A DNA stretch of 32,000 bases from assembly GCA_000961595.1 (NCBI GenBank), contig LADO01000057.1:4991-36990 (forward strand), in the 5' to 3' direction. A program made the translations under genes and the position numbers. Positions 2,608 to 25,378 of this stretch are shown here, piece by piece. The stretch's first letter is position 1. Each line of letters begins with the position of its first letter. Under the pieces are notes generated by a model. It saw nothing but the letters and a program-made list of their open reading frames with translations, was not told the origin of the DNA and made no database searches. The stretch comes from Peptococcaceae bacterium BRH_c4b. Its GTDB lineage: Bacteria > Bacillota > Desulfotomaculia > Desulfotomaculales > Desulfocucumaceae.

Positions 2608-3166
2608 GTGAATGAAAACATGGACAGATCAGGCGGGAGACGTTATGGCAAGGAAAAGTACCCGTATGTTTTAGAATCCCGTAATATCGGTGCGGCCAAA
2701 CCTGTTAACAGAATTTTTTTCCCGGCCTGGCTACATGGGCCTGGCGGAGGGCGGGTGCGGAACGATTATAACCGGTTGCGCAGTGGTTTCTCCGGATACG
2801 GTTGCCTTTGACCGGGTAATGCGTATAGATAATGACCGGTTTATACCCGGGCTGAAGAGGCTGTTCGGGGATCTTCCCCATGTGGATATCGCTGCTGAGT
2901 TGAAAAAGTATGCCAGCGTGCCTGTATGCGCTGTTGGATCGGTGTTTACCCTGGAAGCGGCCGAGGCTATTGTGGCCTCGGGCAAGGCGGATTTTGTGGC
3001 CATGGGCAGGGCTCAGATGGCCGACCCTGCCATTGTGCGCAAATCTGCAGAGGGCCGGGATGCGGAGATAATAAAATGCCTCGAGTGCAATAAGTGCACA
3101 TTTTGGACTACCGGCGATCCGGAGGTTTATTGCAGCATAAATCCGGATTATCGGAATAATAATTAG
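2608..3166 (+). pseudogene. Decayed remnant of an Old-Yellow-Enzyme / 2,4-dienoyl-CoA-reductase-like NADH:flavin oxidoreductase
   Basis: Frame 1 (2608-) encodes an OYE-like N-terminus, 'KYPYVLESRNIGAAKPVNRIFFPA'. After the T-run at about 2711-2720 the similarity continues in frame 2 ('GLAEGGCGTIITGCAVVSPD', 'IDNDRFIPGLKRL'). It then jumps straight to the end of the barrel ('VPVCAVGSV...GKADFVAMGRAQMADPAIVRK') and the Fe-S motif 'CLECNKC...C'. The TIM-barrel core of roughly 170 aa and the C-terminal FAD/NAD domain are missing. Confidence 0.55.
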
Positions 3167-3178
3167 ACCAGGCGGAAT

Positions 3179-4822
3179 ATGGAGAATTTATTTAAAGCAT
3201 TAACAAAAATAGACGTATTATCCCCGCCCAAGCAGTATATCACAAAACTTTTGGAGGCAGTCTGTCAGCAATTGGGCTATTCCTTCGGTTCGGTGATTGA
3301 ACTGGACCATAATGGCCGGGGCTGGATGTTTGCCTCGTATAACCTGCCGGAAAACTATGTGCATACGGCAAACCAGGTGGCTCCATATATGTCCAGTCCT
3401 TTTGGAGAAGCCATTAAAACGGGAGAAATTGTTGTATCATGCGATCCGCTGAGTGAAAAACGGCTGGAGCCCTGGCATGAAATCATTGGGCAAAACAATA
3501 TCAAGACCATGGTATGGGTGCCCCTGCTAAATAAAGGCAGCGCCTTCGGAACATGCAACCTTTACGACATTCGGGTCAGGCAGATTGATGAGTTGGAATG
3601 GCATACCCTGCAGCAAATAGGGGTGACCATATCAATTGCCTTGGCCAGCAACCAATACCTGAATAAATTGAATGGTAAAACCAGGGAGCTTGAGGCGGAG
3701 GTTGCCAGGCGCAAGCAGGCGGAGAAAACCACCCACGAGAGCGAAAGGTTTTTAACAAACATTTTCACCAGCATCCAGGACGGCCTCTGTGTGCTGGACA
3801 CCCAGTACAACATTATCAGGCTTAATCATACCGCGGAAAAACTTTACGCGGGGAACCGGACAGTTATAGGTAAAAAGTGCTACCAGGTGTTGCGGGGGAG
3901 AGATGCCATATGTGACGGATGCCCGGCCATCAGAACCCTGGCCGGCGGCGAATCAGACCATGAGGTGCTATCCAATAAAAATGCCGCCGGAGAAATTACA
4001 GGCTGGTCGGAAATATACAGTTTCCCTTTAATTGAATCCCTAACAGGAAAGATCAAGGGGGTAACCCTGTATATTCGCGATATTACGGAACAACGTAAAA
4101 TGGAGCAGGAAATGTCCCGCTTTGAAAGGCTAAACCTGATCGGTGAAATGGCGGCCGGGATCGGGCATGAAATAAGAAACCCCATGACAACCGTGCGCGG
4201 TTTTCTGCAATTACTGGGTGGCAAAAAAGAGTGCTCTCTGTTCAAGGACTTTTTCGGTCTGATGATTGAAGAACTGGACCGGGCAAACGCCATTATTAGC
4301 GAGTTTTTATCCCTGGCCAAAAACAGGATGACTGAATTTAGCCTGCAAAATATCAATGCTATAGTAAACTCCCTGCACCCGCTTATTGATGCAGACGCCA
4401 TGAACATGGATAAGTATGTTGAAGTGAAACTGGAGGATGTTCCCGATCTATGGCTCGATGAAAAGGAAATGCGCCAGCTCATACTAAACCTTGTGCGTAA
4501 CGGGCTGGAGGCTATGGAGGGGGAAGAGGCACTGACCATCAGGACCTTTGCAGCGGAAAATGAGGTGATGCTGGCAGTAACGGACCGGGGCAGGGGTATT
4601 AAACCAGAAGTGCTTGAAAGAATGGGCACACCTTTTTTCAGCACCAAGGATAACGGCACCGGTCTGGGGCTAGCCGTTTGTTACAGCATCGCCGCCCGGC
4701 ACAATGCCTCCATTAAAATTCAAACTGGCAGCGAGGGCACTACCTTTACAGTGCACTTCCGCCAGTGCTGCCTGCCAGGGCAGCACCCAGGGCGCCAACC
4801 AATTGGGGATTTTTCGGTATAA
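3179..4822 (+). CDS. Cytoplasmic GAF-PAS sensor histidine kinase, orphan (sporulation-kinase-type H-box)
   Basis: 547 aa with no hydrophobic segments. It has an N-terminal GAF-like region, a PAS domain ('FLTNIFTSIQDGLCVLD'), H-box 'GIGHEIRNPMTTVRGFLQLL', N-box 'LILNLVRNGLEAM', and G-boxes 'DRGRGI' and 'GTGLGLAV'. No response regulator is nearby. Confidence 0.85.
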   Translation: MENLFKALTKIDVLSPPKQYITKLLEAVCQQLGYSFGSVIELDHNGRGWMFASYNLPENYVHTANQVAPYMSSPFGEAIKTGEIVVSCDPLSEKRLEPWHEIIGQNNIKTMVWVPLLNKGSAFGTCNLYDIRVRQIDELEWHTLQQIGVTISIALASNQYLNKLNGKTRELEAEVARRKQAEKTTHESERFLTNIFTSIQDGLCVLDTQYNIIRLNHTAEKLYAGNRTVIGKKCYQVLRGRDAICDGCPAIRTLAGGESDHEVLSNKNAAGEITGWSEIYSFPLIESLTGKIKGVTLYIRDITEQRKMEQEMSRFERLNLIGEMAAGIGHEIRNPMTTVRGFLQLLGGKKECSLFKDFFGLMIEELDRANAIISEFLSLAKNRMTEFSLQNINAIVNSLHPLIDADAMNMDKYVEVKLEDVPDLWLDEKEMRQLILNLVRNGLEAMEGEEALTIRTFAAENEVMLAVTDRGRGIKPEVLERMGTPFFSTKDNGTGLGLAVCYSIAARHNASIKIQTGSEGTTFTVHFRQCCLPGQHPGRQPIGDFSV

Positions 4823-5106
4823 TCACTTCGCCTTTTGCGACAGGGGACGGTTCTTAAAGGGGCCAATCGGAAGTTTTGCGCGTAAAAAGACTCAACAGGC
4901 GGGTGTTCACAGCCTGTTGAGTCTTAACAATATCTATGCGATAAAACTAACGTGCAAAATTTTTGATTGACCCAGAAGAATGAAGTCGCGACTGCCAAAC
5001 CTATGGGATTTCAATTCTTTGTTACTGCCTTTTGAGCTTTGACTCCCCCCATTTTTTTACATGCCACATGTATTTTTTCGTTGTTTTTTCATTAAACCGG
5101 CTTGAT

Positions 5107-5178
5107 TTAGGCATACCTTCCCCCTCCCCACATTGCAACGATGACAGATATGACGATAATTAAATGCTTTCTTCTCAT
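5107..5178 (-). CDS. Candidate 23-aa hydrophobic peptide MRRKHLIIVISVIVAMWGGGRYA (type-I-toxin-like; speculative)
   Basis: ATG at 5178-5176 is preceded by AGGTG (5190-5186) at 7-nt spacing. A TATAAT-like box lies about 75 nt upstream on the minus strand. The ORF sits in the core of the foldback element and is too short for the ORF track. Confidence 0.25.
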   Translation of the reverse strand: MRRKHLIIVISVIVAMWGGGRYA

Positions 5179-5319
5179 CAATAATCACCTAACCTTTCCT
5201 ATTCGTAAAATAAAAACCTTCATCTTTATACTAAAGCTGAAGGAGGAATTGCACATTATACCGGAGATATAGTTTTCTCTATCTTAAGTAATGCTTTTTT
5301 TGCGTCAGGAGAGCCAGTT

Positions 5320-5326
5320 TTCGACA
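5320..5326 (-). promoter_or_regulatory. Perfect Spo0A-box (TTCGACA on +, i.e. TGTCGAA on -) in the foldback core
   Basis: Exact heptamer in non-coding DNA. Confidence 0.25.
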
Positions 5327-5672
5327 TAAATTTAAAAAGTCCTTCTTTGTCCGAAAATATTTTTCACTAAATTTTAGATAATATATATGTGATTGCAAGA
5401 TATTCTTTTAATCACCGCGACTTCATTCTTCTGGGCCAATCAAAAATTTTGCGGATAGGTTTTGCGCATAGGTATTGTTAAGGCTCAACAGGCAGCGAAT
5501 GTCCGCCAGTTGAGCCTTTTTTCGTGCAAAACTTCCGATTGGCCCCTTTAAGAACCGTCCCCTGTCGCACCCCCTGTCGCACTCGAAGAATAAAATAAAT
5601 TCCGGATACACCATATTTATCCCCCAAGCATATTCTGGTTATATAACCGTAATTTTGTAAGGGGGTTAAATT

Positions 5673-5990
5673 ATGTCCGGCGAGAGTGAAATAAGCGGTT
5701 CCAAGGGAGATAAGTACTGCCCTCCTGGTATGACCAGTATGCTGGCGGACAGGATTAGGGAACTTGTAGGTCAACAGGCAACGGTTTACATGTATGATAT
5801 GGTATTGACAGGCATGGTTCACTATGTGGGCATGGATTATATGGAACTGCATGTGATGTACGACAACATGATGAGAATGGTGTTGATTCCTCTTTATTCA
5901 GTGATGGCCGTTGTGCCCGGTGGGCCACTGCCGGAGGAGGAAGTTGAACCCGCCGCACCTACTTGTCCGTCCACTCCGGGTATTCTCTAA
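5673..5990 (+). CDS. Hypothetical small Met-rich protein with Pro/Glu-rich tail
   Basis: 105-aa ORF. ATG is preceded by AAGGGGG 7 nt upstream. The core 'LVGQQATVYMYDMVLTGMVHYVGMDYMELHVMYDNMMRMVLIPLYSVMAV' loosely recalls small Sm-like/DUF2642-type spore-former proteins (unverified). Confidence 0.55.
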   Translation: MSGESEISGSKGDKYCPPGMTSMLADRIRELVGQQATVYMYDMVLTGMVHYVGMDYMELHVMYDNMMRMVLIPLYSVMAVVPGGPLPEEEVEPAAPTCPSTPGIL

Positions 5991-6176: not shown

Positions 6177-6199
6177 GCGCCCCAGGTGGGGCGCTTTTT
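6177..6199 (+). terminator. Rho-independent terminator upstream of pth
   Basis: GCGCCCC (6177-6183), loop AGGT, GGGGCGC (6188-6194), then T5. It lies inside the ORF-track N-terminal extension of pth, which argues against the 6186 start. Confidence 0.65.
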
Positions 6200-6263
6200 G
6201 TTGGTTCAGCTTTACCTTATTGCTTACTGCCCGGGGGATATAGTAAAATTTGTTGAGGCGGGG

Positions 6264-6836
6264 GTGGAAATATTGTTTCTGGTGGCTGGTCTTGGCAATC
6301 CGGGGGGCAGGTATGAGCTTACCCGGCATAATGTAGGTTTCCGGGTGGTGGACAGGCTGGCAGGCCAGCTTGATACCAAGGTGACCAGGTCTATGTTCAA
6401 AGCCCTTTATGGTGAAGCCGTGGAGGGAACGCAAAAGATTATTCTGGTGAAGCCCCAGACTTACATGAACTTAAGCGGGACAACACTGTCGGCCATGATG
6501 AACTGGTATAAAATACTGCCCCGGGAATTACTGGTTATCTATGACGACATGGATCTGCCGGTGGGTAAAATCCGCATTAGAAATAAGGGCGGCCACGGGG
6601 GCCACAAAGGCATGATATCAATTATAGAACAACTGGGAACCAGCGAGTTTGCCCGCCTGCGTATAGGCATAGGCCGCCCGGAAATACCGGGCTACGATCC
6701 TGCCGGCTGGGTTCTGGGGAGATTTTCCGATGATGAAGAAAAAGCCATCAACGATGCGGTTATAAATGCCGCCGAAGCGGCAAGGCATATAATTAAAGAA
6801 GGCGCGGAAGCCGCCATGAACAAATTTAACCGGTAG
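6264..6836 (+). CDS. pth: Peptidyl-tRNA hydrolase
   Basis: 'LVAGLGNPGGRYELTRHNVGF...VKPQTYMNLSG...GHGGHKG' is the Pth signature. GTG 6264 has GAGG 5 nt upstream and gives 190 aa, the typical length. Confidence 0.9.
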   Translation: MEILFLVAGLGNPGGRYELTRHNVGFRVVDRLAGQLDTKVTRSMFKALYGEAVEGTQKIILVKPQTYMNLSGTTLSAMMNWYKILPRELLVIYDDMDLPVGKIRIRNKGGHGGHKGMISIIEQLGTSEFARLRIGIGRPEIPGYDPAGWVLGRFSDDEEKAINDAVINAAEAARHIIKEGAEAAMNKFNR

Positions 6837-6852
6837 CAATACCGGTTTTTTT
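6828..6852 (+). terminator. Terminator of pth (overlaps the stop codon)
   Basis: AACCGGT (6828-6834), loop AGCAAT, ACCGGTT (6841-6847), with the T-run extending to 6852. Confidence 0.7.
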
Positions 6853-6967
6853 GCTGTGTAAAAAAATTGTCAATAATTTATGTTTTTTCCATGTTAAATA
6901 TAGGATTTTATAGTTTTTTGTAGAAGTTATGCAAAAATAAATTTGAGGTACATATTTGAGGTATATA

Positions 6968-7429
6968 ATGTTAAAATTTATTCTTTTTCTCATGCAGTCT
7001 TTACCGGAATCGTCAGGCATGATCGCTTTCAGTCTGGCCCTGGTCAGGGTGAAGCTGCGCTGGGGAATTATACTGGCGGCGGGTTTGGTTTCAACTTTGA
7101 TAATTTACTTTATAAGGGAATTGCCTGTTGCCTTCGGGCTGCACACCGTAGTAAGTATGCTGTTGATGGCGGTTTTTATCAGCAAAGCCACAAAAGTATT
7201 GCCCTCCAGAAGCTTTGCGGCCGTTTTCGCCTGTTTTGCCCTGCTGGCGTTACTGGAGGCTATCATGTACGAAGCAACAGCCCGCTTGTTAAACAGGGAG
7301 ATCAAGGACATTATGTCGGATTATCTGCTGTGGAGAATAACAGGGCTGCCCCAGGCACTGCTAATGAACATTGCCGCTGTTTTAATGTCCAGGTATAGAA
7401 AACCCATGGAAGGTATGTGGAAAATATGA
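6968..7429 (+). CDS. 153-aa polytopic (~5 TM) membrane protein, paralog 1 of an agrB-linked family, function unknown
   Basis: It has the same length as the 7602-8063 product and matches it at 94/153 positions in an ungapped hand alignment. It ends 'RKPMEGMWKI'. ATG 6968 has GAGGT 5-6 nt upstream. An in-frame TTG 6956 is served by a duplicated copy of the same SD. Confidence 0.75.
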   Translation: MLKFILFLMQSLPESSGMIAFSLALVRVKLRWGIILAAGLVSTLIIYFIRELPVAFGLHTVVSMLLMAVFISKATKVLPSRSFAAVFACFALLALLEAIMYEATARLLNREIKDIMSDYLLWRITGLPQALLMNIAAVLMSRYRKPMEGMWKI

Positions 7430-7473
7430 TTTATTTGCATTCAGCAGGCATCTGGCCGCCCATGCCGCTTTAA
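7426..7473 (+). pseudogene. 5' remnant of a second agrB copy (16 codons, then stop)
   Basis: ATGATTTATTTGCATTCAGCAGGC (7426-) aligns with the true agrB start ATGAGTTACCTTGCGTTCAGCAGGC (8060-). Both share the same ATGA stop/start overlap with the preceding membrane-protein gene. Confidence 0.5.
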
Positions 7474-7542
7474 CGGCGTTAATATTTTCTTTTTAAAAAA
7501 ATATAGGGATGCGGTGGAAGTATATAGGGTTTTGGATGTTGT

Positions 7543-7549
7543 TGTCGAA
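7543..7549 (+). promoter_or_regulatory. Perfect Spo0A-box TGTCGAA about 55 nt upstream of the membrane-protein/agrB/agrD operon
   Basis: Exact heptamer in the 172-bp intergenic spacer. Confidence 0.35.
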
Positions 7550-7601
7550 TTGAATAATTGCCGGTCATCAGGCGCTAAAACATATATGCGAGGTAATAAC
7601 C

Positions 7602-8063
7602 ATGATAAAAATAATTTTGTTTCTACTGCAGGGTATACCGGAATCGCTGGGCTTTATTGCGTGCGGTCTGGCCCTGGCCAGGGTTAAGCTGCGCTGGGGA
7701 ATTATACTGGCTGCGGCACTTGTGTATACCTTGATCATCTATGCCATAAGGCAATTGCCGGTTACTTTCGGGCTGCACACGGCTGTGGGTATATTGCTGG
7801 TGGCGGTTTTCATCGCCAAAGCTACCAGGGTAAAACCCTCAATAAGTTTTGTCTGTGCCTTTGCAAGTTGTTCCGTCTTAGCCCTGGTGGAAGTACTTGG
7901 TTACGAAATGGCTAAAAAATTGTTGCACACGGATATAAATAATATAATATCTGACGATCTTATGTGGAGAATGGTAAGTTTTCCCCAGGCTGTATTATTG
8001 ATCATAATCGCGCTGCTCATAGCAAAATACAGAAAGCCCCTGGAAGGCATGTGGAAAATATGA
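7602..8063 (+). CDS. 153-aa polytopic (~5 TM) membrane protein, paralog 2, translationally coupled to agrB
   Basis: ATG is preceded by GAGGT 7 nt upstream. The stop TGA (8061-8063) overlaps the agrB ATG (8060-8062) as ATGA. Confidence 0.8.
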   Translation: MIKIILFLLQGIPESLGFIACGLALARVKLRWGIILAAALVYTLIIYAIRQLPVTFGLHTAVGILLVAVFIAKATRVKPSISFVCAFASCSVLALVEVLGYEMAKKLLHTDINNIISDDLMWRMVSFPQAVLLIIIALLIAKYRKPLEGMWKI

Positions 8064-8698
8064 GTTACCTTGCGTTCAGCAGGCGCTGTGCCGGTTATCT
8101 GGGCCGGAAAACAAACCTGCCGGAGGAAAAGGAGATAATTCTGGCCTATGTTATCGAGGTGCTGGCGCTTAATGCGGCCAATATTGCGCTGACGCTGCTT
8201 TTGGGGGCCGCGCTGGGGGTGTTCCCGGGAACACTGGCAGTTCTTTTGACAGTGGCGTTATTCAGGCACAGCGCCGGAGGGGCCCATTCACAGTCCCCCT
8301 GGCGGTGCGCCGCTATAACTGTTGTCACTTTTCCCGGGCTGGCATGGCTGGCGTTATATATAGTCCGGCTGGGCCAGCCTTTTATTGATATTTTTACACT
8401 GGCATCTTTACTGACCGGCTTGCTTGCTATTTTACGCCTTGCTCCGGTGGACAATCCTGCCGCGCCTATTATATCAATGCGCAGGAGAAAAAAGTTAAAA
8501 TATATAGCCATAACAACTCTGGTATTGCTGGCTGTGGTTGTATTCTTATTGCGGGAACTCGCCGGTGTAACTACCAATGACATACGGGTATGTATCAGCC
8601 TGGGCGTTTTATGGGTCGGCTTCATGCTTGGCGGCTGGGGGCACGGGTTAATGTCACTCATCGACAGCATTAAAATAGTAAACCGGAGGGAGGTGTAA
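8060..8698 (+). CDS. agrB: AgrB-family AgrD-processing membrane endopeptidase
   Basis: 212 aa. 'LFRHSAGGAHSQSPWRCAAIT' places His76 and Cys83 7 residues apart, as in the catalytic H77/C84 of S. aureus AgrB. 'APVDNPAAPIISMRRRKKLKYIAI' matches the conserved AgrB loop. The ORF-track start at 7964 lies inside the upstream gene. Confidence 0.85.
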   Translation: MSYLAFSRRCAGYLGRKTNLPEEKEIILAYVIEVLALNAANIALTLLLGAALGVFPGTLAVLLTVALFRHSAGGAHSQSPWRCAAITVVTFPGLAWLALYIVRLGQPFIDIFTLASLLTGLLAILRLAPVDNPAAPIISMRRRKKLKYIAITTLVLLAVVVFLLRELAGVTTNDIRVCISLGVLWVGFMLGGWGHGLMSLIDSIKIVNRREV

Positions 8699-8702
8699 AC
8701 TA

Positions 8703-8834
8703 ATGAAAAGATTAGTCGGCAAATTGTTTGTTTTTGCTGTGACGACCCTGCTTTTGCTGGCCAGCGTTGTTGCCGCGTCCGCCTGTACTATTACGGCTTA
8801 CCAGCCCGAGGTGCCCGCATCGCTGAGAAAATAG
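8703..8834 (+). CDS. agrD: AgrD-type autoinducing-peptide precursor (43 aa), absent from the ORF track
   Basis: MKRLVGKLFVFAVTTLLLLASVVAASACTITAYQPEVPASLRK. The SD GGAGGGAGGTG ends 7 nt before the ATG, and the gene starts 4 nt after the agrB stop. It has a hydrophobic leader, Cys28 plus 4 residues (CTITA), then a 'YQPEVPASLRK' tail like clostridial AgrD tails. Confidence 0.8.
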   Translation: MKRLVGKLFVFAVTTLLLLASVVAASACTITAYQPEVPASLRK

Positions 8835-8905
8835 TAAATTAAAGGGTATAAGGCTGCCAGCCGCCTTGCCTTGCATAATATATGACAGTTAATCGCCACG
8901 GCATT

Positions 8906-8943
8906 TATACATAAGAGGCGGTTTTAACTGCCTCTTATGTATA
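8906..8943. other. Perfect 14-bp inverted repeat between agrD and the kinase gene (terminator without U-tract, or operator)
   Basis: TATACATAAGAGGC (8906-8919), 10-nt loop, GCCTCTTATGTATA (8930-8943). Confidence 0.4.
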
Positions 8944-8968
8944 ATAAGGATTAAAAGGGGTGACGTAG

Positions 8969-10606
8969 TTGACGCCGGGAAGTGAAAGGCAAAGGGAAAC
9001 AGAGCTTCATGAGTACCTGACAACTACGCACATGCTTTGTTTGCTGATTATGGTATCGGCTTTTATTTTGAGCAAAAAATTTATTTCCGGTAAAATATAC
9101 CCGGTCATAAATGTCCGCTTTTTTGCTCTGGCCGGTTTGTTCTGTGCAGGCGTGATTTTGATGTTCAGAATAAAAAACCATTTCCTTGCGGGCAATAAAG
9201 AAATCGTTACCTTGGCCAAATTAGCCTATCTGGCCTTTCCACTCTTTGTATCCTCCGCCACATTAATGATTATTGATGACAGCCGCTATCATTCCGAAAT
9301 TCTACTATTGCTGCCGGTGCTGGTAACGGCCTCCGTCATGGGAAAAAAAGCCGGCCTGGCCATGGCCACCGTATGTTCGGCATCAGTAGTGTTTTACCAG
9401 ACCGTAATAATGGGAAAACAATTCTTTCCCGCTCTGGAATACAACTTCCTGCTGATCTGCCTGATTTATGTCGTGGGCTGGTTCGTGGGCGGCCTGACGG
9501 ATATTGAGGCCCAGCACCGGCAGCATTTAAACGAAAGTTTGCTTTCTCTGAAAAATGAAATCAATACCCGCCGGAGGGCGGAGGAACAACTGCGCATACA
9601 GTCCTGCGCCGTGGAGCAAAGCCCCGGCATGGTGATTATAGCTGACACCTCCGGCAGAATAGAATATGTCAATAACAGCTTTTCCCTGCTCACCGGCTAT
9701 GCTTCCGGTGAGGTAGAGGGAAAATACCTGGTTGATTATAACGGGCAGGCTTCCGGAGATTTTTTGCAGATATGGAAGGACATTGAAGCGGGTAAGGAGT
9801 GGAAAGGGGAGATTAGTAGCCAAAAAAAGACCGGCGACAGTTACTGGGAAAACGCCACTTTTTTCCCCTTGCGGGATACCGACGGCACCGTAACACATTT
9901 TTTAAAATTTGCCGAGGACATCTCCGAGCGCAAACAAATGGAGAGGGACATGGCCAAGCTGGACCGTATGAATCTGGTGGGGGAAATGGCTGCCAGCATC
10001 GGTCACGAGATAAGGAACCCGATGACCACCGTGCGGGGCTTTTTGCAAATGCTCGGGGGAAAAGAAGAGTGCAGGCATTATAAGGAATATTACGATCTGA
10101 TGATCCAGGAGTTGGACCGGGCCAATGCTATCATTACAGAGTACCTTTCGCTGGCCAAAAACAAGCCGGTAGATTATCAGCTACACAACCTTAATACCAT
10201 CGTAAAAACATTGTATCCTCTGCTCTCGGCGGATGCCATCAATTCCGATATGTATGTGGAACTGGAAACTGAACCCATACCAGATTTTACGGTAGATGAA
10301 AAGGAAATACGCCAGCTTATATTAAATCTCGTGCGGAACGGTCTGGAGTCCATGCAGCCCGGTGGTAAATTAATCATAAGCATCTTTCCTGAAGGGGATG
10401 ATGTGGTTTTGTCGGTCCGGGACCAGGGCCATGGCATCAGCCCGGACATTCTGGATAAAATAGGGACTCCTTTTTTTACCACCAAGGAAAAAGGAACGGG
10501 TCTTGGCCTGGCAATGTGCTACAGCATTGCGTCCAGGCATAACGCCACAGTAAAGGTGGAAACCGGGACGGAGGGAACGTTGTTTACAATTTTATTCAAA
10601 GTTTAA
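8969..10606 (+). CDS. Membrane-bound PAS sensor histidine kinase, orphan (sporulation-kinase-type H-box)
   Basis: 545 aa with about 6 hydrophobic segments in the first ~190 aa. It has a PAS domain ('AVEQSPGMVIIADTSGRIEYVN'), H-box 'SIGHEIRNPMTTVRGFLQML', 'LILNLVRNGLESM', 'DQGHGI' and 'GTGLGLAM'. TTG 8969 is preceded by AAGGGGTG at 6-nt spacing. The C-terminal ~240 aa are closely paralogous to the 3179-4822 product. Confidence 0.85.
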   Translation: MTPGSERQRETELHEYLTTTHMLCLLIMVSAFILSKKFISGKIYPVINVRFFALAGLFCAGVILMFRIKNHFLAGNKEIVTLAKLAYLAFPLFVSSATLMIIDDSRYHSEILLLLPVLVTASVMGKKAGLAMATVCSASVVFYQTVIMGKQFFPALEYNFLLICLIYVVGWFVGGLTDIEAQHRQHLNESLLSLKNEINTRRRAEEQLRIQSCAVEQSPGMVIIADTSGRIEYVNNSFSLLTGYASGEVEGKYLVDYNGQASGDFLQIWKDIEAGKEWKGEISSQKKTGDSYWENATFFPLRDTDGTVTHFLKFAEDISERKQMERDMAKLDRMNLVGEMAASIGHEIRNPMTTVRGFLQMLGGKEECRHYKEYYDLMIQELDRANAIITEYLSLAKNKPVDYQLHNLNTIVKTLYPLLSADAINSDMYVELETEPIPDFTVDEKEIRQLILNLVRNGLESMQPGGKLIISIFPEGDDVVLSVRDQGHGISPDILDKIGTPFFTTKEKGTGLGLAMCYSIASRHNATVKVETGTEGTLFTILFKV

Positions 10607-10856
10607 TCATGATCGCCGAAAAAGGTGTCAATTATTTTTTCGGCAACTCTTTTCCGGGCGTTGGACTGGGCCACCAGCATTAAAACCACCAGAAACAACT
10701 CCGCAATATCCCTCTTTTCACTGGATACCTGTTCTGTCTTCTCCCTGCTCAAATCAAACTTCTCCATCAGCGTAAGCCTGGAAGAAAAACGTTAAAGGAC
10801 TAAAACAGCCTTTTTCTGTCAAGTATATAAGCAAATACTTCCGGGAGGCTGCCGGA

Positions 10857-11261
10857 ATGCAATACAATTTCATACCGGCAGCATTGGCGGCTGCGGGACT
10901 TTCCTGGCTGACTAACGGATTTATACTGCGGCTCGGACGCGGCGGGCTGGTATACCTGGCACCGGCGGCAGAGGAAGTTGCCAAAACGGGCCTTGCTCTG
11001 GCTGTGGGTGCTTCGGTGCCGGCAACTCATATATTTTTTGGTTTATTGGAAGCCCTGTGGGACGGGGCAGGAAAAAAGGATGTTCCCGCAGGGGCCATTG
11101 CTTTACTGAGCCATACAGTATTTGGTTTGATTACCTTTTTTGTACTGCATGCTACCGGGGCCGTGTGGCCGGCCCTGACTTTTGCTTATCTTGCCCATGT
11201 AGGATGGAATACCCTGGTGTTGCATCTGACCGGCAGAAAAAAGGGGGGTGCGGGGAGATAA
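10857..11261 (+). CDS. Small (134 aa, ~4 TM) CPBP/PrsW-superfamily-like membrane protein (putative glutamic-type intramembrane protease)
   Basis: ATG is preceded by GGAGG 8 nt upstream. The motifs 'AEEVAK' (EExxK as in PrsW, EExxxR in CPBP), 'LSHTVFG' and 'AHVGWN' (HxxxN) occur in the family order. Assignment is by motif only. Confidence 0.55.
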   Translation: MQYNFIPAALAAAGLSWLTNGFILRLGRGGLVYLAPAAEEVAKTGLALAVGASVPATHIFFGLLEALWDGAGKKDVPAGAIALLSHTVFGLITFFVLHATGAVWPALTFAYLAHVGWNTLVLHLTGRKKGGAGR

Positions 11262-11569: not shown

Positions 11570-14500
11570 ATGCGCGGATTATTGGCACCATTGAAGAATA
11601 TGAAAGAATTCCAAAGTCTGTGCCGGGGGCTTGGCAGAGGCCATAAGCAGCAATTGGTTTTCGGCCTTGCCGGTTCCCAGCGCGCCTATCTGGCCGCCGG
11701 AATTGCAGAAAGCTGCGCCTCTCCGGTTTTAATCGTCACTGCCGGGGAACAGGAGGCCGGGCTGCTGGCTGATGATTTGTCAGCCCTGCTGTCCGGGGCG
11801 AGGGTATTTCATTTTCCGGTGCTGCAACTTTTGCCGTATCAGGTTCTGGCCCATGGACGGGAAGTGCTGGCCTCCAGGCTAAAGGTTCTGGAGGCGCTAA
11901 TAGACGGACAGCCTTCCGTTGTTGTGACTTCTGCGGAGGGTTTGATGCGCCGCCTGTCACCCCCGGAAATATTCAGGAGGGCGAATCTGGAAATAATGGT
12001 GGGCCAGAGGATCGAACCGGAGAAATTAAAATATCGTCTGGCAGAACTGGGCTATGAACGGGTTGACCTGGTAGAAGGCCGGGGGCAGTTCAGCGCCAGG
12101 GGCGGCATTATTGACGTTTTTCCCTCCACCGGCGATATGCCCTGCCGGCTGGAATTTTTTGACGATGAGGTTGACTCGGTGCGCAGTTTCGACCCTGATA
12201 CGCAGAGATCAGCGGAAAAATTAAGTAAGGTGAATGTATTGCCGGCCGGGGAACTGGTGCTGGAGCCACCGGTCAGGGAGGCGGGAATTAAGGCCCTGGA
12301 GGCTGAGTACCGGACCCAGATGAAAAGAATTTCCCGGGAGTCATCCTCGGAAGCCAGGCGCCAATTGGAGGATATGGCCGGTACGGCCCTGGAAAGAATT
12401 CGCACGGGACTGCACTTTCCCGGGCTGGAGCAGTTTTTACCATATTTTTATCCCCACCCTGTAACCCTGGCGGATTATTTTCCAGCCGGGGTCCCGGTTC
12501 TGGTGGATGAGCCAGCCAGGTTTAAAGAAGTGGTGGAGGTAATAGAAAAAGAAAGGGCCGAGACATACGCGGATCTGCTGGCCAAGGGCAGGGTACTGCC
12601 CGGGCAGTACAGGGGTTATGCCGGCTGGCAGGAGCTAGAACAGTTTCTGAGGCGCCTGAATGCGGTGTATCTTTCCTTTCTGCCCCGCCAGCCCCAGTTT
12701 CTTGGAACCGCTAACGTGGTGACTTTTCCCGTTAAGGGCATGCATGTCTTTCTGGGCAGGGTGGATATTCTGGTGGATGATGTGCGGCACTGGAAACGCA
12801 ACGGCTATGCCGTTGCCCTGCTGGCAGGCAGCGGGGACAGGGCCAGGCAGTTACTGCAGGGGATGAAGGATGCCAAAATCGATGCCTACCACATCCGGGA
12901 GATTGCCGGTGATATTTCCCCGGGCAACGTGGTGATCAGCGAGGAATCTCTTTCCGGCGGCTTTGAACTGGTGAGCGGTAAGCTGGTGGTGGTTACCGAA
13001 TCGGAAATGTATGGCCAGAGGCGCAGGTCCCGCCGGAACCGTATCCGTCAGGCTCCCAAGCTGGATACCTTCACGGAATTGAAAAAAGGTGATTATGTTG
13101 TCCACGTCAACCACGGTATTGGCCGGTATCTGGGCATTATTTCACTGAATATAGACGGCATTAACAAAGACTATCTGCAGGTTAAATATGCCGGGGAAGA
13201 TAAGCTTTACGTACCCACCGATCAGGTGGGTATGATCCAGAAGTACCTTGGCGCCGAGGCAGATGCTCCGAGGCTTTCCAAACTGGGCGGGGCCGAGTGG
13301 AACCGGGTCAAGGGAAGGGTTAAAGAGGCTGTTCGGGAAATGGCCCAGGATTTACTTGCCCTGTATGCCGCCAGGGAGACCGCCCGGGGCCATGCCTTCG
13401 GCACGGATACCGTCTGGCAAAAGGAGTTTGAGGCCAATTTTCCCTACGAGGAAACTCCCGACCAGTTGCGGGCCATCGCAGAGGTAAAAAAGGACATGGA
13501 GCGCCCCAGGCCCATGGACCGCCTGCTGTGCGGCGATGTTGGCTATGGTAAAACCGAAGTGGCCCTGAGGGCTGCCTTTAAGTCCATTATGGACGGCAAA
13601 CAGGTGGCCGTACTGGTTCCCACCACCATATTAGCCCAGCAGCACTACAACACCTTCCGGGAGCGTTTTGCTCCTTATCCGGTAAAAGTTGAGATGCTCA
13701 GCCGTTTCAGGAGCCCCCGGGAACAGAAGGCCATCATAGCCGATCTGACTAGCGGAAAACTGGACATAATCATAGGCACCCATCGCCTGGTACAGGAGGA
13801 TGTTGTTTTTAAAGATCTTGGCTTTTTGGTGGTGGACGAGGAGCAACGTTTCGGGGTGACTCACAAGGAGCGGTTAAAGCAGATCAAAAACAATGTGGAT
13901 GTGCTTACCCTTACCGCCACTCCCATACCCCGTACTCTGCACATGTCGCTGGTGGGGGCCAGGGATACCAGCATACTGGAAACTCCCCCGGAAGACAGAT
14001 TCCCCGTGCAGACCTACGTGCTGGAAGAAGACCCGGCCATGATCAGAGAGGCCATATTGAGGGAAATGGGCCGGGGCGGCCAGGTTTTTTTTGTTCATAA
14101 CAGAATCATAGATTTAGACAGGCTGGCTTCCTGGCTGGCCGAACTCGTCCCCGACGCCAGGCTGGCCATAGGCCACGGCCAGATGAAAGAAGACGATCTG
14201 GAACAGGTCATGCTGGATTTCATGGATAACCAGTATGATGTACTGGTTTGCACCACTATCATTGAAAGCGGTCTGGACATTCCCAATGTCAACACGCTGA
14301 TAGTCAAGGATGCCAACAATATGGGACTGGCCCAGTTATACCAGCTGAGAGGCCGGGTAGGCCGCTCCAGCCGGCTGGCTTACGCGTATTTAACCTACCG
14401 GCGGGACAGGATTTTAAATGAAGTGGCCGAGAAGAGGCTTGCCGCTATCAGGGAATTTACTGAATTTGGCTCCGGCTATAAAATTGCCATGCGGGATCTG

Positions 14501-15091
14501 GAAATCCGGGGCGCCGGAAACCTGTTGGGAGCGGAACAGCACGGCCATATCGCTGCGGTGGGATTCGACCTTTACTGCCGGCTGCTGGAGGAAGCAGTGC
14601 GGGAGGCCAGGGGCGAGGAGCATGTGGGGCCTGTGGAAACTTCCATAGAGCTTCCGGTGGAGGCTTACCTGCCGGATGGTTACGTGCCGGACAGCAACCA
14701 AAAGGTGGAGTTATACCGTCGCATTGCCCATTTCCGGGAAGAATCCGAGGTGGGTGATATAGAAGAAGAAATGGTTGACCGTTTCGGCGACCTTCCTGTT
14801 CCCGCCAGAAACCTGCTCAGGATAGCCACATTGAAAATTATAGCCGGGAAGTACCGCATGCGTGCCCTGGCGGGGCAGCCGGGTTTCTTTAAGCTACAGT
14901 TTGCGCCTGGCCACGTCCTTACGGGTGAAACACTGGTCAGGCTGGTGCAGACATACAAAAATCGCGTAAAATTCAACGATCTGGGCGGAGAATTTGAAAT
15001 AAAATTAAAAGCGCCCGGTTATGAAGACAACCTTGGGCATTATCTGGATGTGCTGGAGGACTTTTTACGGGAGTTGGGAGGCTGCTCCTAA
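11570..15091 (+). CDS. mfd: Transcription-repair coupling factor
   Basis: 1173 aa with AAGGAG 6 nt upstream. It has a UvrB-homology N-terminus, a CarD/TRCF domain ('GDYVVHVNHGIGRY'), helicase motifs 'GDVGYGKTEVA' and 'DEEQRFGV', and a TRG motif region. Confidence 0.95.
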   Translation: MRGLLAPLKNMKEFQSLCRGLGRGHKQQLVFGLAGSQRAYLAAGIAESCASPVLIVTAGEQEAGLLADDLSALLSGARVFHFPVLQLLPYQVLAHGREVLASRLKVLEALIDGQPSVVVTSAEGLMRRLSPPEIFRRANLEIMVGQRIEPEKLKYRLAELGYERVDLVEGRGQFSARGGIIDVFPSTGDMPCRLEFFDDEVDSVRSFDPDTQRSAEKLSKVNVLPAGELVLEPPVREAGIKALEAEYRTQMKRISRESSSEARRQLEDMAGTALERIRTGLHFPGLEQFLPYFYPHPVTLADYFPAGVPVLVDEPARFKEVVEVIEKERAETYADLLAKGRVLPGQYRGYAGWQELEQFLRRLNAVYLSFLPRQPQFLGTANVVTFPVKGMHVFLGRVDILVDDVRHWKRNGYAVALLAGSGDRARQLLQGMKDAKIDAYHIREIAGDISPGNVVISEESLSGGFELVSGKLVVVTESEMYGQRRRSRRNRIRQAPKLDTFTELKKGDYVVHVNHGIGRYLGIISLNIDGINKDYLQVKYAGEDKLYVPTDQVGMIQKYLGAEADAPRLSKLGGAEWNRVKGRVKEAVREMAQDLLALYAARETARGHAFGTDTVWQKEFEANFPYEETPDQLRAIAEVKKDMERPRPMDRLLCGDVGYGKTEVALRAAFKSIMDGKQVAVLVPTTILAQQHYNTFRERFAPYPVKVEMLSRFRSPREQKAIIADLTSGKLDIIIGTHRLVQEDVVFKDLGFLVVDEEQRFGVTHKERLKQIKNNVDVLTLTATPIPRTLHMSLVGARDTSILETPPEDRFPVQTYVLEEDPAMIREAILREMGRGGQVFFVHNRIIDLDRLASWLAELVPDARLAIGHGQMKEDDLEQVMLDFMDNQYDVLVCTTIIESGLDIPNVNTLIVKDANNMGLAQLYQLRGRVGRSSRLAYAYLTYRRDRILNEVAEKRLAAIREFTEFGSGYKIAMRDLEIRGAGNLLGAEQHGHIAAVGFDLYCRLLEEAVREARGEEHVGPVETSIELPVEAYLPDGYVPDSNQKVELYRRIAHFREESEVGDIEEEMVDRFGDLPVPARNLLRIATLKIIAGKYRMRALAGQPGFFKLQFAPGHVLTGETLVRLVQTYKNRVKFNDLGGEFEIKLKAPGYEDNLGHYLDVLEDFLRELGGCS

Positions 15092-17124: not shown

Positions 17125-17147
17125 TGCTATAATAGTCAAATGTCGAA
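17125..17147 (+). promoter_or_regulatory. Extended -10 promoter candidate (TGcTATAAT) followed immediately by a perfect Spo0A box
   Basis: TGCTATAAT at 17125-17133 and TGTCGAA at 17141-17147, around the predicted +1. This is about 340 nt upstream of the yabN start. Confidence 0.4.
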
Positions 17148-24454: not shown

Positions 24455-25378
24455 ATGAGCGGGGATATAAAAAAAATTGCCGTGATCGATGTGGGCAGCA
24501 ACTCCACAAGGCTGCTGATAGCCGGGGTTCACCGGGATGGGTCGGTTGAGCCGCTACATACAGATCTGATTACCACCAGGCTGGGCGAGGGTATTAACGA
24601 AGGTTTGCTGCTACCCGGGGCCATGGAGCGAACGGTGCAGGCCATGGCTTGTTTTAAGACTGTCATTAGTAACTGGAATGTGCATAAGTTGGTGGTGACG
24701 GCCACCAGTGCCGTACGTGATGCGGCCAACAGACAGGAATTCATTGATCTGGTACGGTTTGAGACGGGATACAAAATAATGGTTCTATCCGGTCCCGAGG
24801 AGGCCTTTTTCAGCTACTATGGCGTGGGGAAAGGGCTGGGGGAAGGACTTCAAGGGCTTGCGGTGGTGGATGTGGGCGGAGGCAGTACGGAGTTTACCTG
24901 GACGGAACGGAATTCCCTGGTGTGCGGCAGTACCAGGGTCGGTGCAGTGCGCATGACCGAGGGAGGACACACCGATGGCAAAATTATTGAGCTGTTAATG
25001 CCAGTCCTGGCCGGGGTGAAAAAATCTTGTCCCGCCGCCGTGGTGGGCGTTGGTGGAACCATTACCAATCTGGCGGCCATGGATTTGAAGCTAACGAAAT
25101 ATGATCCCGATAGGGTGCATGGACACCGGCTGTATATTGAAGGTGTGCACGATCTTTTGGAGGCCCTGACGGCGCTGGGGACAGAAGAAAGGAAAAAGTT
25201 ACCCGGCCTGCAGCCGGCCAGGGCCGATATAATCGTGGCCGGGTCAAGAATTATATTATTAATTATGAAAGAGCTGGGCCTTCCCTATTTAATCGTAAGC
25301 GAGACCGACTTGCTATATGGCCTGGCATCGGACAGCATTTATAATGTCGAAAGAAAAAATGTAATACATTACCAATAA
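24455..25378 (+). CDS. Ppx/GppA-family phosphatase (exopolyphosphatase / pppGpp phosphohydrolase-like)
   Basis: 'KKIAVIDVGSNSTRLLIA', 'VVTATSAVRDAANR' and 'VVDVGGGSTEF' are ASKHA/Ppx-GppA motifs. ATG 24455 gives 307 aa. The ORF-track start at 24410 lies inside repeat F. Confidence 0.85.
   Translation: MSGDIKKIAVIDVGSNSTRLLIAGVHRDGSVEPLHTDLITTRLGEGINEGLLLPGAMERTVQAMACFKTVISNWNVHKLVVTATSAVRDAANRQEFIDLVRFETGYKIMVLSGPEEAFFSYYGVGKGLGEGLQGLAVVDVGGGSTEFTWTERNSLVCGSTRVGAVRMTEGGHTDGKIIELLMPVLAGVKKSCPAAVVGVGGTITNLAAMDLKLTKYDPDRVHGHRLYIEGVHDLLEALTALGTEERKKLPGLQPARADIIVAGSRIILLIMKELGLPYLIVSETDLLYGLASDSIYNVERKNVIHYQ

Follow-up and report, generated by a model that had tools for sequence, protein, structure and literature searches.

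The 32-kb stretch of DNA from Peptococcaceae bacterium BRH_c4b examined here (LADO01000057.1; hereafter the window, to which all coordinates refer) carries, between pth and mfd, a group of genes that resembles the signal-producing half of agr quorum-sensing systems and is joined to a gene for a membrane-bound histidine kinase. We propose that this group is a variant agr-type quorum-sensing module, conserved in Desulfotomaculia, whose peptide is sensed by a kinase with six transmembrane helices (6-TM) and whose output is the sporulation phosphorelay. We assign this reading a probability of about 0.6.

A sequence-only reading of the window had described a seven-element cassette in the pth-mfd gap, and all of its elements are present at or near the positions proposed. 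The unit that emerges from comparison with about 50 related loci, all passed through one uniform open reading frame (ORF) and phmmer analysis, is smaller. By its shared gene order, it is a four-part module comprising one to three copies of a gene that we call X, agrB, agrD, and a receptor gene encoding one specific 6-TM domain. The last member of the original cassette, a gene for a 134-aa membrane protein, falls outside this unit. The features of the module in the window are as follows.

6968 to 7429, plus strand: X1, a 153-aa membrane protein with five helices, the upstream paralogue of X2 and a product of tandem duplication
7426 to 7473, plus strand: agrB 5′ remnant, a 15-codon stub (MIYLHSAGIWPPMPL, then stop) from a duplicated X/agrB junction
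7543 to 7549, plus strand: Spo0A-box consensus TGTCGAA, 59 nt upstream of X2
7602 to 8063, plus strand: X2, a 153-aa membrane protein of an unannotated family
8060 to 8698, plus strand: agrB, membrane cysteine endopeptidase and cyclase for AgrD, 212 aa
8703 to 8834, plus strand: agrD, 43-aa precursor (TIGR04223)
8905 to 8944, plus strand: strong hairpin in the spacer between agrD and the receptor gene
8969 to 9583, plus strand: first part of the receptor gene, the 6-TM sensor domain (HKN), which is proposed to bind the peptide
9584 to 10606, plus strand: second part of the receptor gene, with PAS, HisKA, and HATPase_c domains (Pfam)

Signal production by an agrBD pair

The AgrB protein matches PF04647 (E 1e-39). 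Its catalytic residues H76 and C83, which the sequence-only reading had singled out, lie seven residues apart and are at least 95% conserved across 33 orthologues. Translation of agrB is coupled to that of X2, with the agrB start forming an ATGA overlap with the X2 stop; a longer ORF beginning with GTG does not mark the start. The 43-aa AgrD had been missed by the ORF list and was recognized in that earlier reading. It scores 36.5 bits with the NCBIfam model TIGR04223 (cut-off 19), and its match to Pfam PF05931 is sub-threshold (E 0.053).

The precursor consists of a signal-peptide-like leader ending in ..AASA, a ring segment CTITA, and a follower YQPEVPASLRK. When 33 AgrD orthologues are aligned, an invariant Cys is followed by four hypervariable residues and a near-invariant YQPEVPxSLR(K/R) follower. 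The leaders are Sec-like in all 33, with a basic N-terminus, a hydrophobic core, and a small-x-small junction of the form ..(A/S)(A/S)A(S)A. Judged by these profile matches and conserved residues, the agrBD pair is genuine. The window product is predicted to be a CTITA thiolactone, which would be a tail-less ring if the leader is cut between ..ASA and the ring Cys. Such a ring could rearrange to a lactam by analogy with Rc-AIP1 of R. cellulolyticum, a tail-less ring peptide for which this rearrangement has been demonstrated and which controls endospore formation (PMC8251862).

Because AgrB recognizes the conserved follower, one AgrB may serve several AgrDs, and the enzyme is plausibly a generic cyclase. 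Of the two P. propionicicum loci, one has agrB and the other lacks it. In the spacer that precedes the receptor gene, all 31 loci that were folded form a GC-rich hairpin with the consensus AAGAGGTGG..CCACCTCTT, often followed by a run of T residues. This hairpin is probably a partial terminator or 3′ stabilizer, and its probable effect is to fix how strongly the signal genes are expressed relative to the receptor.

A four-part module in many genomic contexts

Of about 36 loci that have enough flanking sequence, 30 are complete and show the order X(1-3)-agrB-agrD-receptor. The departures are few: agrB is absent from two loci (L020 and L025), a recognizable agrD is absent from two others (L018 and L022), and in L038 an IS21-like element interrupts the module after agrD. 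In this last locus, positions 7220 to 7500 encode the N-terminus of an IstB-like protein (IS21 helper) where the receptor gene should begin. The receptor thus appears to have been replaced or disrupted by an insertion sequence in that metagenome-assembled genome (MAG).

By their flanking genes, the loci can be sorted into at least 15 unrelated context groups within Desulfotomaculia, including Desulfoscipio, Desulfocucumis, Pelotomaculum, and Formimonas. For example, D. gibsoniae, D. palustris, P. thermopropionicum, and P. schinkii each carry one to three X genes, agrB, a gene of about 43 codons, and a PAS kinase, with unrelated flanks. The sequence-only reading had proposed comparison of the pth-mfd gap in related genomes as a test of insertion and co-inheritance. 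Co-inheritance is borne out in many contexts, but placement between pth and mfd occurs only in the window, in L007 (a 97%-identical metagenome relative), and in L008 (the nearest GTDB species representative, an uncultured Peptococcaceae MAG). More distant X relatives keep similar company. Formimonas warabiya has X-X-agrB-agrD-receptor, and a Bacillota MAG has agrB-agrD-X-kinase, in which X overlaps the kinase start.

Three loci of the P. propionicicum group (L024, L026, and L034) also encode an OmpR-type regulator and a HAMP-HisKA kinase (TTGNEL at its specificity positions) upstream on the opposite strand, divergent from the module. Two of these loci, L024 and L034, have two tandem agr-type kinases each.

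A constant sensor domain with exchangeable outputs

The window kinase begins with six hydrophobic helices, which are followed by PAS (PAS_9, E 3e-17), HisKA, and HATPase_c domains. The 6-TM domain is constant among 36 receptors, with invariant P116, G125, E157, and W171, and its TM region has a weak match to DUF4118 (E 0.0044). What follows this domain takes three forms. The first is the PAS-HisKA-HATPase arrangement of the window. The second, found in ten Pelotomaculum-type loci, is HisKA-HATPase without PAS; the PAS domain, missing from many orthologues, is thus dispensable. The third is a GGDEF domain joined to an HD_5 (HD-GYP-like) domain, as seen in L027, L041, L042, L046-L050, and L052 (Pfam-confirmed in L027, L041, L042, L046, L047, and L049). 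In Formimonas, a GGDEF-HD protein and a divergent PAS kinase flank a single agrBD, and both carry the 6-TM domain.

That the 6-TM domain is fused to varied outputs marks it as the constant, signal-linked part of these proteins. A reverse search of metagenome contigs with the TM domain as query found X-agrB directly upstream in 12 of 12 loci and agrD in 11 of them. Because the sensor stays beside the signal genes while its outputs are swapped, it is probably the peptide receptor, with the 6-TM domain as the peptide-binding module. The GGDEF-HD fusions suggest that in some lineages cyclic peptides control cyclic di-GMP (c-di-GMP).

By its domain matches, this receptor is not AgrC, as it combines a HisKA/HATPase_c-type core with a different TM region. 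The kinase adjacent to agrBD is not an HPK10-type AgrC: its matches are to HisKA (PF00512) and HATPase_c (PF02518), and its H-box is of the classical HEIRNP form. The absence of AgrC-type and LytTR proteins noted by the sequence-only reading holds, since no REC, LytTR, or AgrC-type domain was found in scanned window ORFs of at least 90 aa. Regulators near related loci are exclusively OmpR-type proteins with their own HAMP kinase. The module is therefore, as far as profiles can tell, an agr system by its signal-production half and not by its reception half.

A different arrangement would have agrBD serviced by a canonical AgrC/AgrA pair encoded elsewhere, with the adjacent kinase there by coincidence or mere co-regulation. 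Orphan agrBD genes with distant receptors do exist, among them those of C. perfringens, with VirS as receptor (PMC7492741), and C. difficile agr1 (PMC11210211). We nevertheless give this arrangement very little credence. The genes adjoin one another in about 40 loci spanning at least 15 contexts and several genera, and in every one of the 12 loci approached from the receptor side. Moreover, the sensor swaps outputs yet stays beside agrD, and in the comparison of the window with L007, agrD and the kinase have diverged together as one unit.

Kinase specificity residues of the sporulation type

The six specificity positions of the dimerization and histidine phosphotransfer domain were read as in Davidson et al. 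2018 (PMC6136694; Table 1/S5). The window kinase, whose H-box is GHEIRNPMTTVRGFLQM, has TTGFQM at these positions. Among the 34 linked kinases, 25 have TTGFQL, four TTGFQM, two TTGFQI, two TSGFQL, and one TTGLQL. The references from B. subtilis are TAGFQL (KinA and KinE), TVGFQL (KinB), TSGFQI (KinC), and TGGFQL (KinD), or T[ASVG]GFQ[LI] overall (PMC6136694). The most common string among the linked kinases is also that of D. acetoxidans Dtox_1918, which in vitro feeds Spo0F, Spo0B, and then Spo0A, and the string of the window kinase occurs in three further D. acetoxidans PAS orphan kinases (PMC6136694). In contrast, the C. acetobutylicum kinases that phosphorylate Spo0A directly have different residues, such as NVSAQV (PMC6136694). 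An internal contrast is provided by the OmpR-paired kinase that lies near the module in three loci, which reads TTGNEL.

The sequence-only reading had described a sporulation-type kinase with no adjacent response regulator. Indeed, no REC domain was found in the 32 kb, and 27 of the 30 complete loci have no response regulator adjacent to the module. The window kinase is an orphan with a PAS domain and sporulation-type specificity residues, which are the published hallmarks of Spo0 kinases (PAS being frequent, not obligatory) (PMC6136694). In P. thermopropionicum, the start of the orthologue lies at genome position 1863446 (1855154 + 8293 - 1), which is that of one of four orphan kinases tabulated in 2018 for this phosphorelay-bearing species (S8 table), where Spo0F and Spo0B are also reported (PMC6136694). 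This orthologue was therefore already counted as a candidate sporulation kinase, and its agr neighbors were not noticed there.

On these residues, Spo0F is the most likely partner of the agr-linked kinase, although not a certain one, and the route to Spo0A in this lineage most likely runs through the Spo0F/Spo0B phosphorelay rather than directly. The original proposal of a peptide signal wired into the Spo0A pathway through a non-AgrC kinase is thus strengthened by the co-inherited kinase and its specificity residues, but a direct route to Spo0A is less likely than one through Spo0F and Spo0B.

Recurrence of a Spo0A box upstream of X

A perfect Spo0A box upstream of the operon was among the arguments of the sequence-only reading. 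Taken alone it carries little weight, as the window contains five copies of TGTCGAA against 2.4 expected, and a single box is not significant. The lone window box was accordingly rejected as evidence, and the box was accepted after a cross-locus test. Within 220 nt upstream of X on the coding strand, exact TGTCGAA occurs at 18 sites in 16 of 36 loci, whereas about 0.4 to 0.8 sites are expected from a background of 0.03 to 0.07 per kb. The sequence around the recurring boxes has diverged between genera. In Pelotomaculum, a second box with one mismatch (TGTAGAA) lies about 13 nt downstream of the first, and the window box at 7543 to 7549 abuts a -35-like hexamer, TTGAAT. This recurrence supports control of X-agrBD by Spo0A, of either sign, and therefore a feedback loop.

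An exact TGTCGAA at 25345 to 25351, 59 to 65 nt upstream of spoIIE (25410), serves as an informal positive control. In B. subtilis, spoIIE is a classic Spo0A-activated gene, and it is plausible from its position that this copy is a genuine Spo0A site. A further exact copy lies at 17141 to 17147, about 280 nt upstream of a mazG/yabN-like gene (17422).

X, an unannotated family of membrane proteins

The two X proteins of the window have 153 aa each and share 61% identity. X1 arose when about 634 bp were duplicated in tandem, and the copied piece took in the first ~25 nt of agrB, which left the 15-codon stub. The stub DNA aligns with the true X2/agrB junction (ATGTGGAAAATATGA..TTGC.TTCAGCAGGC) and diverges beyond it. 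X1 retains the family-invariant residues E14, R50, G57, H59, and E97, and its ratio of nonsynonymous to synonymous divergence (dN/dS) relative to L007 is 0.43, which indicates that it is under purifying selection.

Searches of Pfam and NCBIfam returned no family for X and no recurrent weak match among 32 members. A profile search recovered 670 cluster representatives, nearly all of about 150 aa, and the same five residues are conserved at 95 to 98% in 265 members. An AlphaFold2 model (mean predicted local distance difference test score, pLDDT, 91) consists of five long helices. By the positive-inside rule, X would have its N-terminus outside and its C-terminus inside, with R50, H59, E97, and Q129 placed toward the outer face of the model. 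A Foldseek search of this model against the PDB gave no fold match (best E 1.5), and hhalign comparisons of X with AgrB, the sensor domain, and the 134-aa protein gave probabilities of at most 1%. Since hhalign finds no kinship between X and the kinase TM domain, we rejected the possibility that X derives from the receptor by splitting.

The hosts of X relatives are Desulfoscipio, Desulfocucumis, Desulfotruncus, Sporotomaculum, Pelotomaculum, and related MAGs, so that the family as sampled is confined to Desulfotomaculia-like Bacillota; no relatives were found in the viral contigs searched. In every locus with enough flank, X adjoins agrB, agrD, or the receptor gene. It is kept in L020 and L025, where agrD and the receptor are present and agrB is absent, and it lies directly 5′ of the second kinase in L034 and of the kinase in L043. 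These observations support the earlier suggestion that the 153-aa proteins are new components. They are integral, conserved, and previously unannotated parts of the module.

Partial Mantel tests on 27 loci show that divergence of the ring tracks divergence of X, with r of 0.44 given the kinase core (p 0.0002), 0.49 given AgrB, and 0.30 given the sensor (p at most 0.0004 for the last two), although Mantel tests on related sequences overstate significance and just four ring positions vary. The sensor likewise tracks the ring (r 0.35 given the kinase core), and AgrB does not (r 0.07, p 0.19). Because the p-values are optimistic, we treat the covariation of X with the ring as a lead. We read this pattern as a specificity cassette made up of X, AgrD, and the sensor, with AgrB as a generic cyclase. 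As a lead, X would belong with the ring-specific half of the circuit, acting in leader removal or peptide release in the manner of MroQ or aiding sensing.

Mosaic divergence and the 134-aa neighbor

Synonymous divergence (dS) between the window and L007 is uneven across the locus. It is 0.02 to 0.08 for X2, agrB, the 134-aa gene, and mfd, and 0.13 to 0.42 for pth, X1, agrD, and the kinase. Within 6600 to 7450 (the 3′ part of pth and X1), dS is 0.22 to 0.24, as opposed to 0.02 to 0.07 in the adjoining X2 and agrB. This pattern indicates recombination breakpoints near 7480 and near 8550. On this evidence recombination has made the locus a mosaic, with agrD and the receptor traveling together, which recalls the hypervariable agr specificity region of staphylococci. 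The dN/dS values lie between 0.11 and 0.44 throughout, and all locus genes are therefore under purifying selection.

The 134-aa protein resembles the CPBP family of membrane proteases in its motifs, with EEVAK, SH, and HVGWN standing against the family set EExxxR, FxxxH, and HxxxN/D. Its match to PF02517 (Rce1-like) is sub-threshold (E 0.031, 15 bits vs a cut-off of 22.4), and it is much shorter than typical CPBP or Rce1-like members. An AlphaFold2 model (pLDDT 62, predicted template-modeling score 0.30) is too poor for fold comparison. Only the window, L007, and L008 have the gene beside the module, and the L008 copy has lost its N-terminal half, including the EExxK motif. By this distribution, it is a lineage-specific neighbor and not a component of the module.

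The CPBP/Rce1-like family includes bacteriocin immunity proteins. One could therefore suppose that the cyclic peptide is mainly antagonistic or bacteriocin-like, that X (together here with the weakly CPBP-like 134-aa protein) confers self-immunity, and that the kinase only autoregulates production. The covariation of X with the ring and its frequent occurrence in several copies, as is possible for immunity genes, would fit such a role. We consider this explanation very improbable, because AgrD and AgrB are typical of signaling, the ring has five residues, the module contains no other modification or ABC export genes, the receptor is its most constant partner, and the 134-aa gene is missing from almost every locus and decaying in L008.

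Proposed mechanism and competing interpretations

In the mechanism that we propose, AgrB would use H76 and C83 to cut the YQPEVPxSLRK follower off AgrD and to close the five-residue thiolactone ring (CTITA). The leader would be removed at ..A-S-A/C by X or by signal peptidase, which would release a tail-less or very short-tailed cyclic peptide. For these steps, we draw on knowledge of the family and on conserved residues. The ring would then bind the 6-TM sensor of the adjacent orphan kinase from outside the cell, possibly together with X, so that X would act either at leader removal and export or as a co-receptor; synteny, domain swapping, and covariation are the grounds for this step. Phosphate would pass from the kinase to Spo0F, Spo0B, and Spo0A, as suggested by the specificity residues and the orphan status of the kinase, and Spo0A~P would rise. 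Finally, Spo0A~P may act on the X-agrBD promoter through the Spo0A box, which the recurrence of the motif suggests, and thereby close an autoinduction loop. In sister lineages, the same sensor would modulate c-di-GMP instead. The scheme starts from what is directly seen, namely gene identities, the conservation and mobility of the module, the modularity of the sensor, the match of specificity residues, and the recurring box, and extends it with a predicted peptide structure, its binding, phosphotransfer, a sign for Spo0A regulation, and a role for X.

A more detailed version is tentative and, in our estimate, somewhat short of even odds. It holds that the linked kinase is a sporulation kinase with the neighboring gene's cyclic peptide as its natural ligand, that X is a small ring-recognizing membrane protein of a new class and serves as a co-receptor or as a ring-specific maturation or export factor, that X, AgrD, and the sensor form an exchangeable cassette served by a generic AgrB, and that the sensor-X pair also drives c-di-GMP enzymes.

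Several points weigh against the sporulation phosphorelay as the output, or against parts of the scheme above. The pattern T[TA]G[FY]Q[LIM] is not exclusive to Spo0F partners and is common to some NtrB/AtoS-like kinases. E. coli AtoS, which has an NtrC-type partner, presumably reads TAGYQI. Orphan kinases of some non-sporulators carry TAGYQL (PMC6136694). The GGDEF-HD output found in some loci argues that the module is not intrinsically tied to sporulation, and about half of the loci have no exact Spo0A box within 220 nt upstream of X. Signal peptidase I could remove the leader, which would leave X without its proposed protease role, and the limits of the Mantel tests apply to the covariation of X with the ring.

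An alternative is that the module is agr-type but its kinase serves a dedicated, unlinked regulator (for example, of the NtrC/AtoC type), with its likeness to sporulation kinases reflecting subfamily ancestry only. The best NCBIfam matches of the kinase include AtoS (E 2e-60) and ZraS, alongside KinD, and the closest solved structure is ZraS, marginally ahead of the sporulation kinase KinB (3d36). The specificity signature is also found in some non-sporulators (PMC6136694), and the GGDEF-HD variants again show a sensor not bound to sporulation. We regard this alternative as unlikely. All 34 linked kinases keep Spo0F-type residues across genera, among them a string for which in vitro validation comes from the same bacterial family; neither the window nor the majority of loci has a regulator alongside; the Spo0A box recurs in the promoter region; and the P. 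thermopropionicum orthologue falls within the published definition of Spo0 kinases (PMC6136694).

Relation to known systems

The agrBDCA system of S. aureus shares with the module the AgrB His/Cys pair, an AgrD with a leader, a five-residue Cys ring, and an acidic, Pro-containing follower, a hypervariable ring with conserved flanks, producer genes beside the receptor, and probably an autoinducing circuit. It differs in the reception half. The receptor of the module is of the HisKA/HATPase_c rather than the HPK10 type and has another 6-TM sensor, and there is no LytTR regulator and no RNAIII in the window. The module also has the extra gene X before agrB, and its predicted output is the phosphorelay or, in some loci, c-di-GMP.

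Also similar is the CPE1563-CPE1562-agrB-agrD operon of C. perfringens, which has no adjacent agrCA and uses a non-AgrC receptor kinase. Two upstream hypothetical ORFs are co-transcribed with agrBD there, and only a construct including both restored toxin production (PMC2706048). Unlike the module kinase, VirS is unlinked and pairs with VirR, and CPE1562/1563 resemble X in lying upstream of agrBD. Agr peptides also promote endospore formation in several clostridia, among them C. difficile, through agr1 (agrB1D1), and R. cellulolyticum, through Rc-AIP1 (PMC11210211, PMC8251862). The tail-less ring of Rc-AIP1 resembles the one predicted for the module from the ..ASA/C junction. In those two species neither the receptor nor the path to Spo0A has been mapped, whereas the module encodes a candidate receptor kinase.

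Like the kinases of the Spo0 phosphorelay (KinA-E and Dtox_1918), the module kinase is an orphan, frequently has a PAS domain, and carries T[TA]GFQ[LMI] residues, but its 6-TM sensor is specific to the module. We know of no sporulation kinase with an identified extracellular peptide ligand or a location in an agr operon. The Rap-Phr systems of Bacillus likewise use secreted peptides to report cell density to the Spo0F phosphorelay. However, Phr peptides are linear and act after import, by inhibiting Rap phosphatases in the cytoplasm, whereas the cyclic peptide of the module would activate a membrane kinase from outside.

A precedent for leader removal is MroQ of S. aureus, a CPBP-family membrane protease encoded outside agrBDCA that is required for removal of the AgrD leader, in an agr-type-specific manner (PMC9388083). 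X could be its functional analogue, and the 134-aa protein has CPBP-like motifs. Unlike MroQ, however, X has no detectable sequence or fold kinship to CPBP proteins, the CPBP match of the 134-aa protein is sub-threshold, and the 134-aa gene is not conserved with the module.

The sequence-only reading had suggested that this architecture was undescribed. The literature searched on agrB and autoinducing peptides in Desulfotomaculum, Pelotomaculum, and Peptococcaceae, on Spo0F, and on sporulation kinases (a coverage that did not extend to a 2008 survey of agr in Firmicutes) holds no description of the module, the X family, the sensor domain, or an agr-linked Spo0-type kinase. The suggestion stands with one amendment, namely that the P. 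thermopropionicum kinase was listed in 2018 as a sporulation candidate without the agr link.

Surroundings of the module in the window

The pth and mfd genes are 4.73 kb apart, and the remainder of the window is the usual origin-proximal block, with many sporulation genes (prs, ctc, spoVT, mazG, yabP, yabQ, divIC, spoIIE, tilS, and ftsH). A scan of the window for Rfam families and tRNAs found nothing. The following features provide context for the module.

3179 to 4822, plus strand: orphan GAF-PAS-HisKA-HATPase kinase, 2 kb upstream of pth (Pfam)
6186 to 6836: pth (PF01195, E 1.7e-68)
10857 to 11261, plus strand: 134-aa membrane protein with EEVAK and HVGWN motifs, a lineage-specific neighbor
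11570 to 15091: mfd

The GAF-PAS kinase has the specificity residues TTGFQL, and its core is 54% identical to that of the agr-linked kinase. Loci L008 and L020 have a similar kinase close to the module, and in P. thermopropionicum an orphan kinase maps near the origin as well, at genome position 93873. Directly 5′ of the GAF-PAS kinase gene, a 158-aa ORF (2690 to 3166) matches just the last ~57 residues of the Oxidored_FMN model and probably represents a fragmentary gene or a pseudogene.

Between the GAF-PAS kinase gene and a 105-aa ORF, two inverted-repeat arms of about 155 nt (4836 to 4990 and 5416 to 5569) are 84 to 88% complementary, contain a hairpin each, and enclose about 425 nt of low-GC, ORF-free DNA. 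This element (4836 to 5569) could be related to miniature inverted-repeat transposable elements, an insertion sequence remnant, or an invertible segment. The 105-aa ORF (5673 to 5990), which lies upstream of pth, has no family match and is kept in L007; its product is rich in Met, Tyr, and Val with a Pro/Glu-rich tail.

Implications

Which signals sporulation kinases sense is a long-standing question. KinA is reported to have no confirmed ligand (PMC5552956), and a 2024 review describes the way in which Agr peptides promote clostridial sporulation as unknown (PMC11210211). In the module, a single conserved, operon-like unit unites a peptide signal with the genes that mature it and with a Spo0F-type kinase, which suggests how spore formation could be coupled to cell density. 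Agr peptide signaling is in this respect not tied to AgrC/AgrA, as the module adds a non-AgrC sensor with kinase or c-di-GMP outputs, and an unannotated membrane family of 670 cluster representatives belongs to agr-type circuits. Some hosts, such as D. gibsoniae and P. thermopropionicum, are culturable and have complete genomes, and the link between peptide and kinase is therefore directly testable. If the cyclic peptide is indeed the natural ligand of the linked kinase, this would be the first sporulation kinase with a defined extracellular signal.

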